Below are positions 2,592 to 61,093 of a stretch of 64,000 nucleotides of DNA, in pieces. The stretch comes from a virus. The translations under genes were made by a program, and so were the position numbers. The DNA lies in IMG/VR virus record IMGVR_UViG_3300012665_000925, positions 32,001 to 96,000 of that record. One strand, written 5' to 3'. The notes beneath the pieces are model-generated. The model was not told where the DNA came from, searched no databases, and worked only from the letters and a program-made list of their open reading frames with translations. Every line of letters starts with the position of its first letter. Position 1 is the stretch's first letter.

Positions 2592-3698
2592 ATGGCAAAC
2601 AATCTCTGGGTACAGCCTTCAGAGCTAGGACCATACGCTCGTACAGAGTTCGCTACAGAGGCGTGTGAAACTGCCTCGTTCCTTCTTTGGGCCATGTCTG
2701 GTCGTAAGTACACTGGCACAACCATTGTTACTGAACGCTACACCTGCGTCCTTCGCAACAACCGCATGGGTCCGTCTACTAAGACGAACTCACCAGTTCT
2801 GTTCGGTGGAGATGTCTATAACATCCCATCGGGTGACTACGACGAATACTCGGAGCTCACAGCAGACGGCCTCTCTCCCGATGCCCGAATTCGACTTCGC
2901 GGTCGCCCAGTTAGTAAAGTTATTGCTTTGCGTAACAAAATGGGTGAGCTAATTGACCCTAGCAAATACTACCTAGTAGACCACTCGACTATCCACGTTG
3001 CTGCTGGAACTGCCTGGACACCTTGTAATACAGAAATCACCTATGAGTATGGAACCCCTGTCCCAGTTGCGGGTCGCATGGCTGCTCGCACTATGGCTCT
3101 AGAGTTTGCAAAACTATGGGCTGGTGACGATGACTGTGCGTTACCTCAGCGTGTTACTTCTGTTTCACGTCAGGGTATCTCTTACACAATCTTGGATAAC
3201 CAGGAGTTCATCGAAGAACTTCGTACTGGTCTGTACGCAGTTGACTTGTTCCTTAAGACAGTCAACCCAGACAACGCTCGCAGAAAAGCTAAGGTATTTA
3301 CTCCTGATGTTCCTCGCGCTCGTCGTTACACAGCGAAGCCGCTCTACCTAACTGCTGATGCTGACTATGACGTTACCCTAGTCCGAAACACTGCTGGTAC
3401 GTGGGATGCTCCTGCCGAGGTCGACCTGACTGCACTAGTCAATAACACTGGGTGGTCTCCTCAGGTGAAACTCCGTAACTATGGAGCCACCACGACAATC
3501 GACCTAGACTCTAGCTCCATCGACCTAAACATCATAGACGAAACTATTAGTGTCACCTTCCCGTATGACAAGGTCTTCAAAGCTATCGGTATGGTTGACC
3601 CTGGTACTTGGACACTTTACGCAACTAAAACTATTGCTGGCGTAGAGAATGTGACTGAGCTTGCTACTGGCAATCTTAAAGTCGAAATGTATGGTTAG
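2592..3698 (+). CDS. head-to-tail adaptor with C-terminal extension
   Basis: ASFLLWAMSGRKY, CALPQRVTSVSRQGISY and TGLYAVDLFL motifs typical of actinophage adaptors. Confidence 0.7.
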   Translation: MANNLWVQPSELGPYARTEFATEACETASFLLWAMSGRKYTGTTIVTERYTCVLRNNRMGPSTKTNSPVLFGGDVYNIPSGDYDEYSELTADGLSPDARIRLRGRPVSKVIALRNKMGELIDPSKYYLVDHSTIHVAAGTAWTPCNTEITYEYGTPVPVAGRMAARTMALEFAKLWAGDDDCALPQRVTSVSRQGISYTILDNQEFIEELRTGLYAVDLFLKTVNPDNARRKAKVFTPDVPRARRYTAKPLYLTADADYDVTLVRNTAGTWDAPAEVDLTALVNNTGWSPQVKLRNYGATTTIDLDSSSIDLNIIDETISVTFPYDKVFKAIGMVDPGTWTLYATKTIAGVENVTELATGNLKVEMYG

Positions 3699-5484: not shown

Positions 5485-8400
5485 ATGGCACTCGTAGGTG
5501 AAGCAAGAATTAAGGTTGTTGCTGATACAAGCAAAGTCCGTGAAGAAATTCAAAAGGCTTTTGGCAACATGGAGAAGGACGCTGATAAAGCTGGAAACAG
5601 CGTATCTAAATCTTTCAACAGAGGCATGTCAAATGGCATGGGTAATGGAAACGCTTTTAAGAAATTTACTAGCGAATCCAAACAACTATCGAGTCAGTTC
5701 CACAAAGCAATCCGTAGCAGCTATAAGTGGCAAGCAGCAACAGGAGCTTTGCTACAAAGCATAATGGCGCTCGGTGGCGGTCTTCTCGCTCTCGTTGGTA
5801 ACATAGCTGGTGCCGCTTCGGCTGGTATCGCGCTTGTTGGTGTTATGGCTCAGATTAAAGTTGCCAGCATGGTTGCCAAATCTGCCTTCAAGGGTGTTAT
5901 GGAGGCAGTCAAGAAAGACTCCAAAGGCGCTGGCGAAGCTGGTAAGACAATCAAAGAGCTGCGCGAAGAGATGCAGCAACTTGCATTCGCCGCAGAAGAG
6001 GCTGCTCTTGGTGAAGAAGCAGCGTCCATCAAACTTGAAAAAGCTCGTGAATCTCTGGCTCGTGTTCAAAACCTTCCGCCAGACAACCGTGCCCGACGTG
6101 AAGCGGAGCTAGCCTATAAAGAGGCTGAACTTGGCTATCGTAAAGCTAAAGACAAAAACGCTGACGCCGAAGATGCAATCATCAATCCTAAAAAGAAAAA
6201 GGGTTCGATTGGCGATGACCCTTATAAGGACTTGACCAAGAGTCAAAAAGAGTTTGCAATATACCTAAAGAGCGTAATGCCTGAGTTTAAGAAGCTCAAC
6301 GAGGCGGCAGCTAGTGGCTTCCTTCCAGAAGTAAAAAAGGGAATGCAAGAAATGTTTAAGGGCGGTCTATTTGACCGCCTTGTAAAGGGCTTTGAAGATG
6401 TCGGTAAGGGTCTAGGTAAGGCGACTAAAAACTTCGCTGGGACAATGTTCGACCCTCAGAACCAGAACAACCTCTCTACGTTCTTCAAGAACACTGCCAC
6501 GACTACAGGAACTCTCGGTACAGTCCTAGGAAAAGCATTCTCTGGCTTCCTTACGCTGATGACTGCAATCAATCCGCTTATTACTAGGTTCACCAGCTTC
6601 CTAGAGATGAAAGCAACTGGATTCTCTAAAAACATGCAGGGCGACTTTGCCAATGTTCAGGCGTTTTTTAAGCAAGCTGGAGATGCAGCCGCTGGATGGG
6701 GTACAATCCTAGGACGTATCTTTGATAAGTTCAAAGGCATGATTAAGGCTAACGTCGGTCCTGGTACTGGCGGTCAGCTTCTTCTAGACTACTTCAAGCA
6801 AGGTACTGACGGATTCCGTGGGCTAGACGGTGCTGCTGGAGAGTTTGCTCGAAAGAACCACTTCCTAGCATCTGCTACCAACCTAAAAGCTATGCTTGAG
6901 AGCGTTAGCAAAATATTTGGCTTTATGTCTGACCTAGGTACTGACCCTGCTGTTGCTAGTTTCTGGGGTATTCTATCTGAGCTAGAGGGGCCGCTCAGCC
7001 ATATATTTGAATCTATTACTGGCTCTTCCGATGAGTTAGCTAAGCTACTAGTTACGGTAGTTGAGATTGTTGCATCGTTCACTGATGCTGGTCAGTTGAA
7101 TGCATACATGGGAATTTTAAGCAATATTTTTGGTATCCTCGGTGGAATTGTTAGGACGCTTTCTCCTGTCTTAGCCTTCTTTGGACCAGCTGTAGGTGCT
7201 ATCGGTGCGCTGGTGACTACTATGCTCCTTCTGAAGAAGGTCACCATGCTCGTGACTGGTACCACTATGGTGCTTGGTAAAGGCATCGGCTGGGTTACCA
7301 GAATGACTCAGGGATTGATTCTTGCCAACAAGACTCACCTGGCTCAGGAAACCCTGAGCATGCGAATTAAGCGAGCCCTGATTATGCTAACTACCGCTGA
7401 GGGTAGAGCAAAGATGATGGCATCTCTTAAAGTAATCTTCTCTGCTGGTGCTAGCCAAAAAGCAGCTCAGGCTGATGCTCAGGCTGCGATAGCTAAGGCT
7501 GCTGCTACAGGAGCTACTGTTGCTCAGTCGGTAGTAACTACCGCTGCTATCGGCCCTACTATGGCCTTGTCTGCTGCCATCAACTCAGCTATCTGGCCTC
7601 TAACTCTTATTGTTGCCGCTATTGCTCTAGTTGTGGTGGGTATCATCGCCCTTGTAGGCTGGCTAAACCAGATTAAAGCTGACCAGGTTAAAAAAGCTGG
7701 TAAGGAAATTGACTCTCAGTTTACAGCAACTAAGGGCAAAATCATTGGTGCCGCCGAAGCTCAGGATATGTGGAGTGCTTCGCTTCTCTCTATGCGTGAT
7801 GACCAAAAAACTGGAATCAAAAGCATCAAAGAGATGGGTAAGGCTCTAAACGAACAGGGAATTTATGTACAAGGCTATGGAACTGTACAGTCAGAAGCCC
7901 ATAAGAACGCTAAAGAAGCCCTAGATGTGTATATGAGCAGCTTAGCTAAACTTGCAAAGAAGAACTTGCCAGAGGCTCAACGCCAGTTCCGCAACATGAT
8001 TGTATCTAGCGGAATGAACAAGCAAGCTACCATGGATTCCATTGTTGCAAACAAGGACATGGTTAAGTCTCTGGAGAAGCAAGCCAAGGCAATGGGTGAC
8101 ACCATTATGAATGCCGACGGTACAGTGAATGCTCTGAAGGCGCTCGACTATGCTATTGGCGAAGGCTCTTATGTTCGCCAGAAAGCTATTCTAGAGCAAA
8201 GAAAGTTTGCCGAAACCTTTAAGAATGCTGCTTCTACATTTATTGATAGCAATGAAGCTATGCAAAATGCTACCACTGATGGCAAGCTTGACCTTAAGAA
8301 GTATGTCAAAGAGCTAAAGAACCAGGGAGGGGAGCTCACTAGCTGGAGAGCTAACATCACCAAGCTGAATGGTCTCTTCACAGATAAAAAGGTTCTTCAG

Positions 8401-35259: not shown

Positions 35260-35318
35260 ATGTGTTTCGGGAGAGAGGCACGTGGGGGCTGGTAGTTCTC
35301 AGCTACTAGCCCCCTTCT
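35260..35318 (+). ncRNA. candidate short RNA or leader (two hairpins after a TAGAAT -10)
   Basis: TAGAAT 35250-55. 9-bp stem with GGGAGA loop (35260-83), then a 14-bp stem (35284-314) and TTCT. Confidence 0.4.
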
Positions 35319-38007: not shown

Positions 38008-38588
38008 TACTTATCGGCAGGCTGTTCGAATGCTAGGCGAGTGATTTCTTCTGATGCAAGTAGTACAGCGATTGGGGCAGCGGCAGTGATTAGCACACCA
38101 ACCCATGCGCGGAAGTCTGCTAGCGAACCATCCCAGAAAGAGAGGGTGTGTGCAATGTTGGCTACAACTGATACTGCCGCGAATGCGGTTAGTCCGCCTA
38201 GGGTGCGCCAGGTGCTCTCTCCACGAGCTTTAAAAACTACGAGCGAGATTGTGTAGGCAAGAATTGCAGCATCGATAAACACTGCTGGTAGCCACTGTAG
38301 GAAAGTCGGTAGTCCAGTCCATGCTGAAACATCGTAGATGCCGTTAAAAGATACTGCGAACGAAGTAATCATAAGCAGGGAAACTAAGGCTACGGCAGTT
38401 GCCAGAACTGGAATGGCATCAGGATTGATGCGTGCTGATTTTTTTCTAACTACAGGTTCTTCTACTTTTGCAAAGTTATTTACAACAGGAATTGGAGCAG
38501 GTGCTGGTTCGCTCATCGGTAAGCCTTCCTTCTTCGGCATTGGTGGGTACATGTATTCAAGAAGTTCATTTTGGTCGTCGTTCATCAT
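38007..38588 (-). CDS. DUF2637-like multi-pass membrane protein
   Basis: Four TM segments: SFAVSF, PAVFID, SVVANIAH. RBS GAAAGGA before ATG at 38588. Confidence 0.7.
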   Translation of the reverse strand: MMNDDQNELLEYMYPPMPKKEGLPMSEPAPAPIPVVNNFAKVEEPVVRKKSARINPDAIPVLATAVALVSLLMITSFAVSFNGIYDVSAWTGLPTFLQWLPAVFIDAAILAYTISLVVFKARGESTWRTLGGLTAFAAVSVVANIAHTLSFWDGSLADFRAWVGVLITAAAPIAVLLASEEITRLAFEQPADK

Positions 38589-51852: not shown

Positions 51853-51921
51853 ACTGCGGTAAAATAGAAGTAGCTCTTGGGAGAGAGGGTTTAAACACCT
51901 ACTCACTCTTAGGGAGATTAT

Positions 51922-52193: not shown

Positions 52194-52223
52194 CAAGTCC
52201 CTCAGAGAAATCTGGGGGATTTG
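52194..52223 (+). terminator. hairpin terminator
   Basis: CAAGTCCCTCAGA-GAAA-TCTGGGGGATTTG. Confidence 0.65.
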
Positions 52224-53463: not shown

Positions 53464-53765
53464 GGGGATGCCTGGTTTCGACTGGCAGACTTTAACATGG
53501 TGAAGCAAGCAGAAACGGCCACGCATTCTTAAAGTGTGGTAAAGAAATAAATGCTGAATCTCGTTCAACATTCGCTCTAGCCGCGTAATCTTAGGATTCG
53601 CCGTTAGGCCCCTGACAAAGCAGTAGTTCTAGCTGGGCAGTCAGGTTTTAAATAAGTAGAACACGCAATGCCCGCAATACCCGTAGTACCGTGGCTGGTA
53701 GAGCCTAAGCTTGTAGAAGAACATCTAAACCTGTTAGGACGGGGGTTCGATTCCCCCCATCTCCA
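53464..53765 (+). ncRNA. ssrA: tmRNA
   Basis: 5' GGGGATG...GGTTTCGAC. Tag ORF 53553-53588 AESRSTFALAA* after ATAAAT. 3' GGACGGGGGTTCGATTCCCCCCATCTCCA with G3.U pair. TATACT -10 at 53432. Confidence 0.95.
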
Positions 53766-53775
53766 CGGATTTGGT

Positions 53776-54069: not shown

Positions 54070-54141
54070 TGACCGCTAGCTCAACGGCAGAGCGTCTCCC
54101 TGTTAAGGAGGTGGTTCCTGGTTCGAATCCAGGGCGGTCAG
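54070..54141 (+). tRNA. tRNA-Asn(GTT)
   Basis: TGACCGC/GCGGTCA acceptor stem, anticodon loop CTGTTAA, GGTTCGAATCC. CCA not encoded. Confidence 0.92.
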
Positions 54142-54155
54142 CAATAAGGAGAGAT

Positions 54156-56211: not shown

Positions 56212-56284
56212 GCCCCCTTAGCTCAGTTGGTAGAGCGCGATACTTGTAATATCGATGTCATCAGTTCGATTCTGGTAGGGGGCT
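56212..56284 (+). tRNA. tRNA-Thr(TGT)
   Basis: GCCCCCT/AGGGGGC acceptor stem, AGCTCAGTTGGTAGAGC, loop CTTGTAA, GTTCGATT. Confidence 0.93.
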
Positions 56285-56387
56285 CAATGAAGTAGTGTAG
56301 CCTCAACCAACTCGACTACTTCATAGCGAGACCCTTTTGGTAGCCAGAGATGTTGGTATCGACTGGGGAGCATCGGGTCTTGCGAAT

Positions 56388-56473
56388 GGAAGCGTGGCCG
56401 AGTGGCCGAAGGCGGTAGTCTTGAAAACTACTGACGTTAATAGCGTCCGCGAGTTCGAATCTCGCCGCTTCCT
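56388..56473 (+). tRNA. tRNA-Ser(TGA)
   Basis: GGAAGCG/CGCTTCC acceptor stem, loop CTTGAAA, long variable arm, GTTCGAATC. Confidence 0.92.
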
Positions 56474-56511
56474 CTGTTGACAGAAATCGTCGCCGCAAGT
56501 ATGGTTAGTGT

Positions 56512-60045: not shown

Positions 60046-60315
60046 ATGCGTGAACGACAGATTCGCAAGTTGCAGAAGAACCGCCACTTAGCTGAGATTG
60101 GTTTCACCCTTCTTCAGAACCCTACCTTCAAGAACCTAAGCCGTGCAGACCGCTACAAGATGGCAAAGTTAATCTACAAGGCTGAACTGATTGAAGTAGA
60201 GATTAAGTCCAAGGACCTAAGCAAGACTCTCAACGCATTCCAAGACATGATTCAAAACATCACAAGTCAGATGGTCGATGACGATGATGATGATGACGAG
60301 AACCCCTTCAAATAA
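60046..60315 (+). CDS. hypothetical protein with acidic tail
   Basis: 89 aa ending DDDDDDDENPFK. Confidence 0.6.
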   Translation: MRERQIRKLQKNRHLAEIGFTLLQNPTFKNLSRADRYKMAKLIYKAELIEVEIKSKDLSKTLNAFQDMIQNITSQMVDDDDDDDENPFK

Positions 60316-60385
60316 CATTTGTAATTTGCGGGTATAACGCCAGCTCGGAGTAGACTAGAACCTTCAAGTGCCCTATAATAAGTAG

Positions 60386-60468
60386 TGGATAGATAAGTGT
60401 TCATATTATTTATTCTCCTTTCTACTGGTGGGAAAGCCCTCGGACTTCGGTTCGGGGGTTTTCTTTTA
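60386..60468 (+). ncRNA. candidate small RNA with anti-SD/anti-start segment
   Basis: TAGACT(60351)-N17-TATAAT(60374). Contains CATATTATTTATTCTCCTTTCTA. Ends at an intrinsic terminator. Confidence 0.55.
60433..60467 (+). terminator. intrinsic terminator
   Basis: AAAGCCCTCGGAC-TTCG-GTTCGGGGGTTT-TCTTTT. Confidence 0.85.
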
Positions 60469-60510
60469 TTTGGACTTGACAAGATTGAAAGATAGCAGTA
60501 GATTGTCTAC

Positions 60511-60987
60511 ATGCAAACATTTCTACCATTCATCGAGTTCAGCGAATCAGCTAAGGCACTGGACAACAAACGACTAAACAAGCAGATTCTTGAGGGTTAC
60601 CAGATTCTCAATGTTCTGAGCAATGACGACCCCCACGCTGGTTGGCGCAATCATCCTGCAGTAAAAATGTGGAGAGGTCACGAAGACGCTCTCTGGGATT
60701 ACATCTTCGCCTGTGTGCGTGAGGCTGACGAGCGTGGCATCAAGACAGATAAGAATGTCGAGAACCTGATGAACCTACGCAAACGCGCAGAGTACAACTG
60801 GGGTGGCGGAATGCCTGAGTGGATGTCGAAGCAAGAAGTGCTTAACCGCTTAGTAACTACGCACAGAGCCAATCTCTACCGCAAAGACCCTGTCTACTAC
60901 TTCGACTTTGTCAGTTCTGTTACTAGCGAGTGGAACGAACCTTGCTGTGAGAAGTGCAACTACTACTGGGTAACGCACAAAGCTTAG
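60511..60987 (+). CDS. pyrimidine dimer DNA glycosylase-like (MSMEG_6728 family)
   Basis: MQTFLP, LDNKRLNKQILE, HPAVKMWRG, HRANL.RKDP.YY. Leaderless TTGACA-N17-TAGATT. Confidence 0.85.
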   Translation: MQTFLPFIEFSESAKALDNKRLNKQILEGYQILNVLSNDDPHAGWRNHPAVKMWRGHEDALWDYIFACVREADERGIKTDKNVENLMNLRKRAEYNWGGGMPEWMSKQEVLNRLVTTHRANLYRKDPVYYFDFVSSVTSEWNEPCCEKCNYYWVTHKA

Positions 60988-61093
60988 GGTAAAAGAAATC
61001 CCCCCGACCTGATATGTTGGTGGGGGGAGTTCTATCTAGGGGTTTTGATTACACGCTATATGACTTATATAAGTGAGCGTCTTTATACCTTGT

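Follow-up and report, generated by a model that had tools for sequence, protein, structure and literature searches.

The window, by which we mean the whole stretch of 64,000 nucleotides of viral DNA that was analysed, contains a gap of 195 bp between two plus-strand genes (60046-60315 and 60511-60987), and this gap houses a whole small RNA (sRNA) unit at 60351-60472 (+), consisting of a promoter, a non-coding stretch of about 85 nt and a UUCG terminator (Table 1). The original prediction had placed such a promoter, non-coding stretch and UUCG terminator in the gap, and all three are indeed present at those positions. The promoter, TAGACT-N17-TATAAT, has 10 of 12 consensus matches in a promoter scan, and about 50 nt without a credible reading frame separate TATAAT from CTCCTTTCT at 60415-60423, which is preceded by CAT at 60402-60404 and then by ATTATTTATT. 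The terminator is specific to the plus strand, since its G-U pairs would mismatch on the other strand. A plus-strand small ORF at 60397-60495 was considered and rejected, as frames differ among relatives (L057 and L065 are set apart by a 1-nt indel).

Table 1. Features in and around the sRNA unit (window coordinates).
Feature	Position	Strand	Basis or remark
Minus-strand ORF behind an 'ideal' SD, rejected as a gene	60267-60404	-	no conserved presence, length or sequence
Upstream gene, 89-aa protein with acidic tail	60046-60315	+	precedes the unit in 26/69 assessable metagenome loci
-35-like hexamer TAGACT of the sRNA promoter	60351-60356	+	sequence and promoter scan
-10 hexamer TATAAT	60374-60379	+	predicted start near 60385-60387
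5' hairpin, 60387-60396 pairing with 60406-60415; U/G-rich loop GUGUUCAUA at 60397-60405	60387-60415	+	folds
Extent of the match to covariance model R1	60387-60469	+	37.5 bits, E 3.7e-5
CUCCUUUCU nonamer, as in the 16S 3' tail; invariant core UCCUUUC at 60416-60422	60415-60423	+	sequence, 16S comparison
Intrinsic terminator: extended stem 60430-60465, UUCG loop, U-run to ~60472	60430-60472	+	scan, folding
Leaderless-type promoter (60476-60504) and pyrimidine-dimer glycosylase gene (60511-60987)	60476-60987	+	Pyr_excise 1e-19 (Pfam)

The significance of the unit comes only from its conservation in relatives; features of the window taken alone are at chance level, with one match to CTCCTTTCT against 0.91 expected (at least one in 60 of 100 shuffles) and 13 promoter-like sites against 12.8 expected from shuffles. 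The segment 60385-60470 folds to -30.8 kcal/mol (z -4.73), none of 200 shuffles being as stable. A covariance model built from three relatives (R1) has the sRNA unit as its only full-length match in the window, the other match being partial and confined to a terminator at 52194-52223 (E 0.85). When the whole window was compared with the families of Rfam 15, among them 6C, RsaE, ctRNAs and motifs known from phages and freshwater, only the tmRNA and three tRNAs reached the gathering threshold, and in E-value mode 60300-60520 gave 14 weak matches, the best scoring 22.1 bits against a cut-off of 44.2. The loci of 20 relatives likewise returned tmRNA and tRNAs only.

Neighbouring genes and likely host

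Since no terminator lies between the stop of the upstream gene (60315) and the sRNA promoter, the upstream mRNA probably ends at the terminator of the sRNA. The AlphaFold model of the upstream protein is a hairpin of two long helices (pLDDT 86.9). Searches with the protein gave only a sub-threshold match to DUF7777 in Pfam, nothing in PHROGs or in a PDB profile search, and no tblastn match in 50,697 phage records; for the model, Foldseek found no match at E 0.001 or better, and the ESM Atlas yielded unnamed clusters only. The protein family occurs widely among contigs of freshwater phages (71 metagenome loci), usually being encoded directly in front of the sRNA, and its acidic C-terminal tail often ends near an aromatic residue.

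The downstream glycosylase gene does have a promoter of its own, as originally predicted: TTGACA-N17-TAGATT at 60476-60504 ends 6 nt before the ATG, which is leaderless geometry. The proposal that this phage has leaderless genes is borne out by geometry for the glycosylase, both in the window and in those four types of relatives that have retained the arrangement (within L001-L004 and L010), where TTGACA, a spacing of 17-18 nt and a -10 box are followed by 6 nt to the ATG. From L007 onwards, the more distant glycosylase relatives instead carry an AAGGA SD (Shine-Dalgarno) sequence within a leader. At three further starts in the window (52543, 19825 (-) and 36741 (-)), a TAGAAT or TATAAT box ends 6 nt before the start codon and the -35 is weak; by this arrangement it is possible that these are further leaderless genes.

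The host is probably a freshwater actinobacterium, because the relatives of ThyX and of the glycosylase and the runs in which the phage occurs point in this direction. The ThyX encoded in the window is 65-70% identical to that of freshwater Microbacteriaceae (Aquiluna, Rhodoluna) and Nanopelagicaceae, and the phage relatives of the glycosylase belong to Gordonia, Microbacterium and Curtobacterium phages and an 'Actinomycetia phage'. Nearly all sequencing runs with pieces of the stretch are labelled as freshwater or lake water, and most of them contain small shares of it. The window also encodes a tmRNA (53464-53768; tag AESRSTFALAA) and tRNA-Asn, tRNA-Thr and tRNA-Ser (54070-54142, 56212-56285 and 56388-56474), and a tmRNA is found in relative L057 as well.

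One 376-nt assembled contig from the metatranscriptome X2 covers 60049-60423, with 11 differences and one gap relative to the window. Beginning where the upstream gene begins, this contig spans the promoter and stops where the motif ends; it is unstranded, and carry-over of DNA could account for it. Such a contig fits read-through from the terminator-less upstream gene and is silent on a separate short RNA and on the strand. A DNA run (X1) contributes a contig over 60306-60513, while contigs of X16 and X7 hold short, more distant pieces only; this comparison concerns the assembled contigs of four runs, in which uncovered parts (60424-61041 in X2) are uninformative.

Relatives of the unit

Relatives were gathered through the neighbouring genes and not by the motif, and they comprise 38 units on contigs from uncultured phages and from freshwater, with 34 unique sequences that fall into about 21 clearly distinct types. 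The glycosylase led to 49 loci, and among the 25 listed the unit is found in L001-3, L004 and L010, the others having different upstream genes. Of the 42 loci reached through the convergent M23 peptidase, 41 were assessable, and nine of these have the unit within 1.5 kb on the expected strand, against 0 on the other strand. The upstream 89-aa protein led to the unit in 4/4 IMG/VR loci and, among 71 metagenome loci, to 26 exact and 4 one-mismatch occurrences, with none in 39 and 2 loci too short; exact here means TCCTTTC and a terminator no more than 260 nt from the stop of the upstream gene, and 69 loci were assessable. Where the identity of the upstream protein is at least 56%, the unit is present in all 14 loci.

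Because the upstream gene varies between members of the family (the acidic protein, a thioredoxin-like gene and others), the unit is a module of its own. The downstream context also varies: in some members the leaderless glycosylase gene comes next, and in others the unit is followed immediately by the end of the peptidase gene that converges on it. Relative L065 holds two complete units in tandem (6511-6726), each with an extended -10 box, UCCUUUC and a terminator, and three relatives' contigs that were searched whole have the unit at one place each. The unit was not found in five large related genomes with model R1 (in two of them also by pattern), a route that recovered only 2/5 known members, so that this negative result does not speak for absence. 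No near-identical DNA was found in cultured phages, and a distant blastn search with 60345-60475 returned only the terminator hairpin in Vibrio phages and a 24-nt chance match.

The elements of the unit are conserved to different degrees. Of the 34 versions, 27 have a -10 box with at least 5/6 of TATAAT at a distance of 35-95 nt before the motif, and in 17 the box is perfect, compared with 12.4% (1.3% perfect) of random 60-nt windows from the same loci, and L142, L143 and L147 have TTGACA or TTGACT where the window has TAGACT. The UCCUUUC core was present in the first 12 members, none of which had been gathered by requiring it, and it is invariant in the family; the base before it is C or U, seldom A, and the one after it is mostly U. 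Its mean probability of being unpaired is 0.53-0.99 in all ten members folded, against 0.31-0.43 for the whole RNAs. The terminator varies in sequence, and its consensus fold from ten members has 15 pairs, five of them with compensatory changes.

The 5' regions of the family fold better than dinucleotide shuffles (mean z -2.0; 14/23 below -1.5), some start points being off. While the sequence of the 5' hairpin stem differs from type to type, the loop is U/G-rich across the family, with UUGUUC, CUUGUUG or UUGGUUC recurring. In pairwise comparison of related types, pairing was maintained at 27 changed pairs, of which 12 had altered on both sides, and was lost at another 27, mostly in comparisons that aligned poorly. 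In an alignment fitted by R1 and limited to the 22 true plus-strand rows of 44, 170 of the 186 cells of nine hairpin pairs are standard (91%) and 63 cells are changed on both sides, compared with 28-51% paired when the partner is slid by 1-3 columns; this alignment is structure-fitted and its rows are kin, so that the counts are not independent. The hairpin pair counts are thus supportive of the predicted stem and do not amount to a formal test.

In three members an additional hairpin, with a C-rich loop of 12 nt, comes first (L057 11648-11675, L065 6511-6537 and, on the minus strand, L097 at about 3487-3514); these loops, UUUCCUUCCAUU, UUUCCCCCCAUU and GUUUUCCCCCAU, sit on the stem GTAGTTG/CAACTAC and are reminiscent of the 6C type.

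The 26-nt terminator was tried and rejected as a marker of the family, as 15 of the 19 stretches carrying it are unrelated contexts without the motif. In these 15 otherwise unrelated viral contigs (within L050-L068) the exact 26-nt UUCG hairpin mostly follows a gene ending ...GESGS or another conserved gene. Either convergence on an optimal terminator or a small piece of mobile DNA would account for the shared hairpin.

The 16S-like motif and its possible partners

The proposed match of the motif to the actinobacterial 16S anti-SD tail holds letter for letter in two Microbacteriaceae 16S genes: CUCCUUUCU is identical to the last 9 nt of the 16S rRNA in these two genomes, which were reached through the ThyX search and in which the 16S gene ends ...GGATCACCTCCTTTCT, followed by AAGGAGC. 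Although the phage RNA contains the last 9 nt of the 16S 3' tail, the GAUCAC that precedes them in 16S is missing from it. Moreover, about one third of the members have UUCC or AUCC and not CUCC, so that the tip UCCUUUC is conserved whereas the CCUCC core is not. The AAGGAGC directly after the mature 16S 3' end (L296-L298) can pair back onto the anti-SD in the precursor, and the small RNA of L010 shows a similar UCCUUUCUAGGAG arrangement.

The original prediction went further in regarding the RNA as the antisense of a whole translation start, and this part of it did not survive comparison with relatives, as the CAU is lost in close ones (GTT in L004, CGT in the L095 group). In several members the CAU part sits inside hairpin 1. 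Because its anti-start-codon half is unconserved and often lies inside a hairpin, the RNA, judged from its relatives, is not the antisense of one whole initiation region.

Nor does the window hold the target that had been envisaged, an mRNA starting AUGAACAC with a matching SD, except for the site itself. A search for SD-N-ATGAAC in the window returned only the site and one ordinary gene start near 38588. At a threshold of at least 13 of 16 complementary bases, the window contained the site and two chance matches with three mismatches, and relative G001 (60.8 kb) the site alone. A duplex scan of 67 translation starts (TIRs) had no outlier, with a TIR mean of -15.8 against -12.7 for the background; the strongest value at a TIR, -26.8, lay near the lowest one in the background, -26.1.

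Most genes of the window are SD-led, with SDs of the AAGGA/AGGAG type that are able to pair with the motif, and GAAAGGA(G), the complement of the motif, is the extended SD flavour of many of them. Indiscriminate SD blocking fits badly with this, because most window genes are themselves SD-led; blocking every SD-led message is difficult to reconcile with the phage's own genes of that kind, unless timing or SD flavour selects. Pairing by an A/U-rich seed of 7-9 nt is also weak, which is a point against the sRNA reading.

The 5' leaders of genes 35337 and 51922 each contain, immediately downstream of a -10-like box, a short hairpin with a GGGAGA loop (35262-35281 and 51873-51890); this loop and the sRNA's UCUCCU are complementary, one of the pairs being G-U. 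Seven pyrimidine-loop hairpins found in the window all fall within ORFs, and none is convincing.

Readings of the unit and their significance

Comparison of the relatives indicates that the unit is real, conserved and non-coding and that it most likely represents a new phage sRNA family, from which we infer a separate short transcript, its action in trans and a mechanism. A promoter and an intrinsic terminator of its own enclose the non-coding stretch, and an invariant, mostly unpaired seed is set between structured flanks that vary and a stem that covaries. The reading that we prefer, and to which we would give an even chance, is that of an sRNA gene of about 85 nt with an SD-pairing pyrimidine seed, belonging to a previously undescribed family of uncultured freshwater phages whose hosts are likely Actinomycetota, probably Microbacteriaceae or Nanopelagicaceae. 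The RNA would be transcribed from the sigma-70-type promoter of the unit, but probably arises as the end of the upstream mRNA as well, and it would present, in order, a 5' hairpin with a U/G-rich loop, single-stranded (C/U)UCCUUUC(U) and the intrinsic terminator. The exposed stretch, identical to the 16S tip, would most likely pair with purine-rich SD regions of the GAAAGGA(G) type in phage or host mRNAs and compete with the 30S subunit, lowering the translation of those mRNAs. A chaperone would not be needed, as with the C/U-rich seeds of Gram-positive sRNAs, and the hairpin loop may add specificity.

It is possible, if unlikely, that the unit is simply a cis-acting 3'-UTR and terminator module of the upstream mRNA and that there is no separate trans-acting RNA. 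The motif might then, for instance, pair with the A-rich flank of the terminator, stabilise the 3' end or, like the icaR 3'UTR of S. aureus, fold back onto the SD of the same mRNA. The absence of a terminator between 60315 and the promoter would suit such a module, as would the RNA-library contig that is unbroken from 60049 to 60423. Furthermore, CUUUCU can pair with GGAAAG, which also pairs with the U-tail, and AAAGGA directly follows the motif in L142, L167, L162 and L195. The SDs of the upstream gene are purine-rich and show moderate complementarity (mean -6.75 kcal/mol in 14 loci); as the comparison set had wrongly placed starts, this value favours neither reading. However, a pure 3'UTR needs no -10 box, yet one is kept in 27/34 versions, often with a consensus -35. 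That different upstream genes precede the unit, that L065 holds two complete tandem units and that predicted folds leave the motif free all speak against a module acting only in cis.

It is rather improbable, in our estimate, that the RNA is a deliberate copy of the host 16S 3' tip, produced in bulk from a strong promoter, that either coats extended GAAAGGAG-type ribosome-binding sites on many messages or baits anti-SD-cutting nucleases. In the former case, ribosomes would be re-routed to leaderless or weak-SD phage genes, for example the adjacent leaderless gene; in the latter, UCCUU-specific MazF-like or RelE1-like toxins would be lured away, and the RNA would act as a counter-defence shielding the translation machinery.

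Taken by itself, a mimic or decoy of the 16S 3' tail, whose UCCUU(UC) would bait toxins that attack the anti-SD (MazF-mt3-like, RelE1-like) and protect ribosomes during infection, is rather unlikely. According to PMC5408214, MazF-mt3 of M. tuberculosis cuts U^CCUU in the 16S anti-SD, and the invariant core contains this recognition sequence, UCCUU, in a predicted unpaired state. The motif is single-stranded by prediction and identical to the 16S tip, and the window also carries a tmRNA and tRNAs, that is, translation-rescue cargo. Other actinobacterial toxins are reported to remove or cut the anti-SD region (PMC12274833, PMC12620021). However, a cleavable bait gets consumed, so that very high levels would be needed, and MazF-mt11 needs CACCU (PMC12274833), which the RNA lacks. 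No such toxin is known for the host of the phage, itself only inferred, and the sequence offers nothing that separates a decoy from plain SD pairing.

On the minus strand the motif reads AGAAAGGAG, and an ATG 10 nt later opens an ORF of 46 codons. When 70 ORF starts of the window are compared, its SD is the one predicted to pair most strongly with the 16S tail (-13.3 kcal/mol, the next being -11.6). The original prediction had judged this ORF non-functional, and the relatives agree: a start codon 3-13 nt from the SD exists in only 18 of the 34 versions and is missing in 16, and the ORFs range from 1 to 38+ codons with nothing in common beyond 'MN' in close kin. The conserved opposite-strand ORF of a cis-antisense or type I toxin-antitoxin arrangement, which often encodes a small hydrophobic toxin, is not found here either, the start being missing in 16/34 and the peptides unrelated, and on this comparison coding by either strand of the unit is excluded. 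A search of IMG/VR with the pattern TCTCCTTTC plus hairpin was rejected as evidence for the family, as six of its 29 stretches are members and most of the other 23 are opposite-strand gene starts. A relic or live start of a minus-strand small gene, with terminator, strong SD and ATG, is hardly tenable: although its SD is the best in the window, ATGAAC follows the SD in the window, L057, L065 and L097, and most of the 23 IMG/VR stretches outside the family look like true opposite-strand gene starts, 16/34 versions have no start codon and the ORFs are dissimilar, the scan found no 9-of-12 promoter upstream of the SD on that strand, the G-U pairs of both hairpins would become A-C mismatches there, and a decaying relic would not lose its ATG while keeping its SD invariant.

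As an sRNA with a pyrimidine seed, the phage RNA can be compared with several known systems. The 6C sRNA (RF01066; 6C/B11 of M. tuberculosis) has the same actinobacterial setting and exposed pyrimidine-rich stretches and, according to PMC6486639, pairs with purine-rich mRNA sites independently of a chaperone. Like 6C, L057, L065a and L097 carry a 5' hairpin with a C-rich loop. Unlike 6C, which has two C-rich loops, the phage RNA has its motif in the linker before the terminator; the motif is a U-rich UCCUUUC, and the RNA is phage-encoded and scores below the Rfam gathering score. In the case of RsaE/RoxS, the G-rich regions met by the RNA are SD sites. These C-rich-motif sRNAs of Firmicutes use a short exposed pyrimidine motif to meet G-rich mRNA regions (PMC6158497). 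They are chromosomal and belong to another host phylum and sequence family, and their comparison with the phage RNA was by Rfam scans only. Among phage RNAs, P22 sar is an antisense RNA that blocks a ribosome-binding site. Similarly, c4 of P1/P7 is a small phage RNA that blocks a ribosome-binding site so that translation is stopped (PMC12197685). For c4 and sar the target is defined and encoded by the phage itself (ant), whereas the searches of the window and of G001 yielded no complementary target for the freshwater phage RNA, and its cis-antisense ORF is degenerate.

No description of this sRNA family was found in the open-access literature, the phrase '16S rRNA mimic' is absent among the open-access matches listed, and actinobacteria, mycobacteria, 16S and leaderless mRNAs all go unmentioned in a 2025 review of phage sRNAs. 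The phage sRNAs known so far come from a few cultured phages of enterobacteria and Pseudomonas, and the present unit adds to them a well-delimited RNA gene family, supported by comparison, from uncultured phages that are abundant in freshwater. This family has a simple, testable feature, namely that its seven invariant exposed bases are those of the ribosome's mRNA-recognition tip. If the RNA regulates only one or a few messages, it would be an ordinary though new sRNA. Should it mask SD sites or protect the tail of 16S, the phage would possess in it a compact means of steering or shielding host translation, in a host phylum in which leaderless translation and anti-SD-cutting toxins are prominent.
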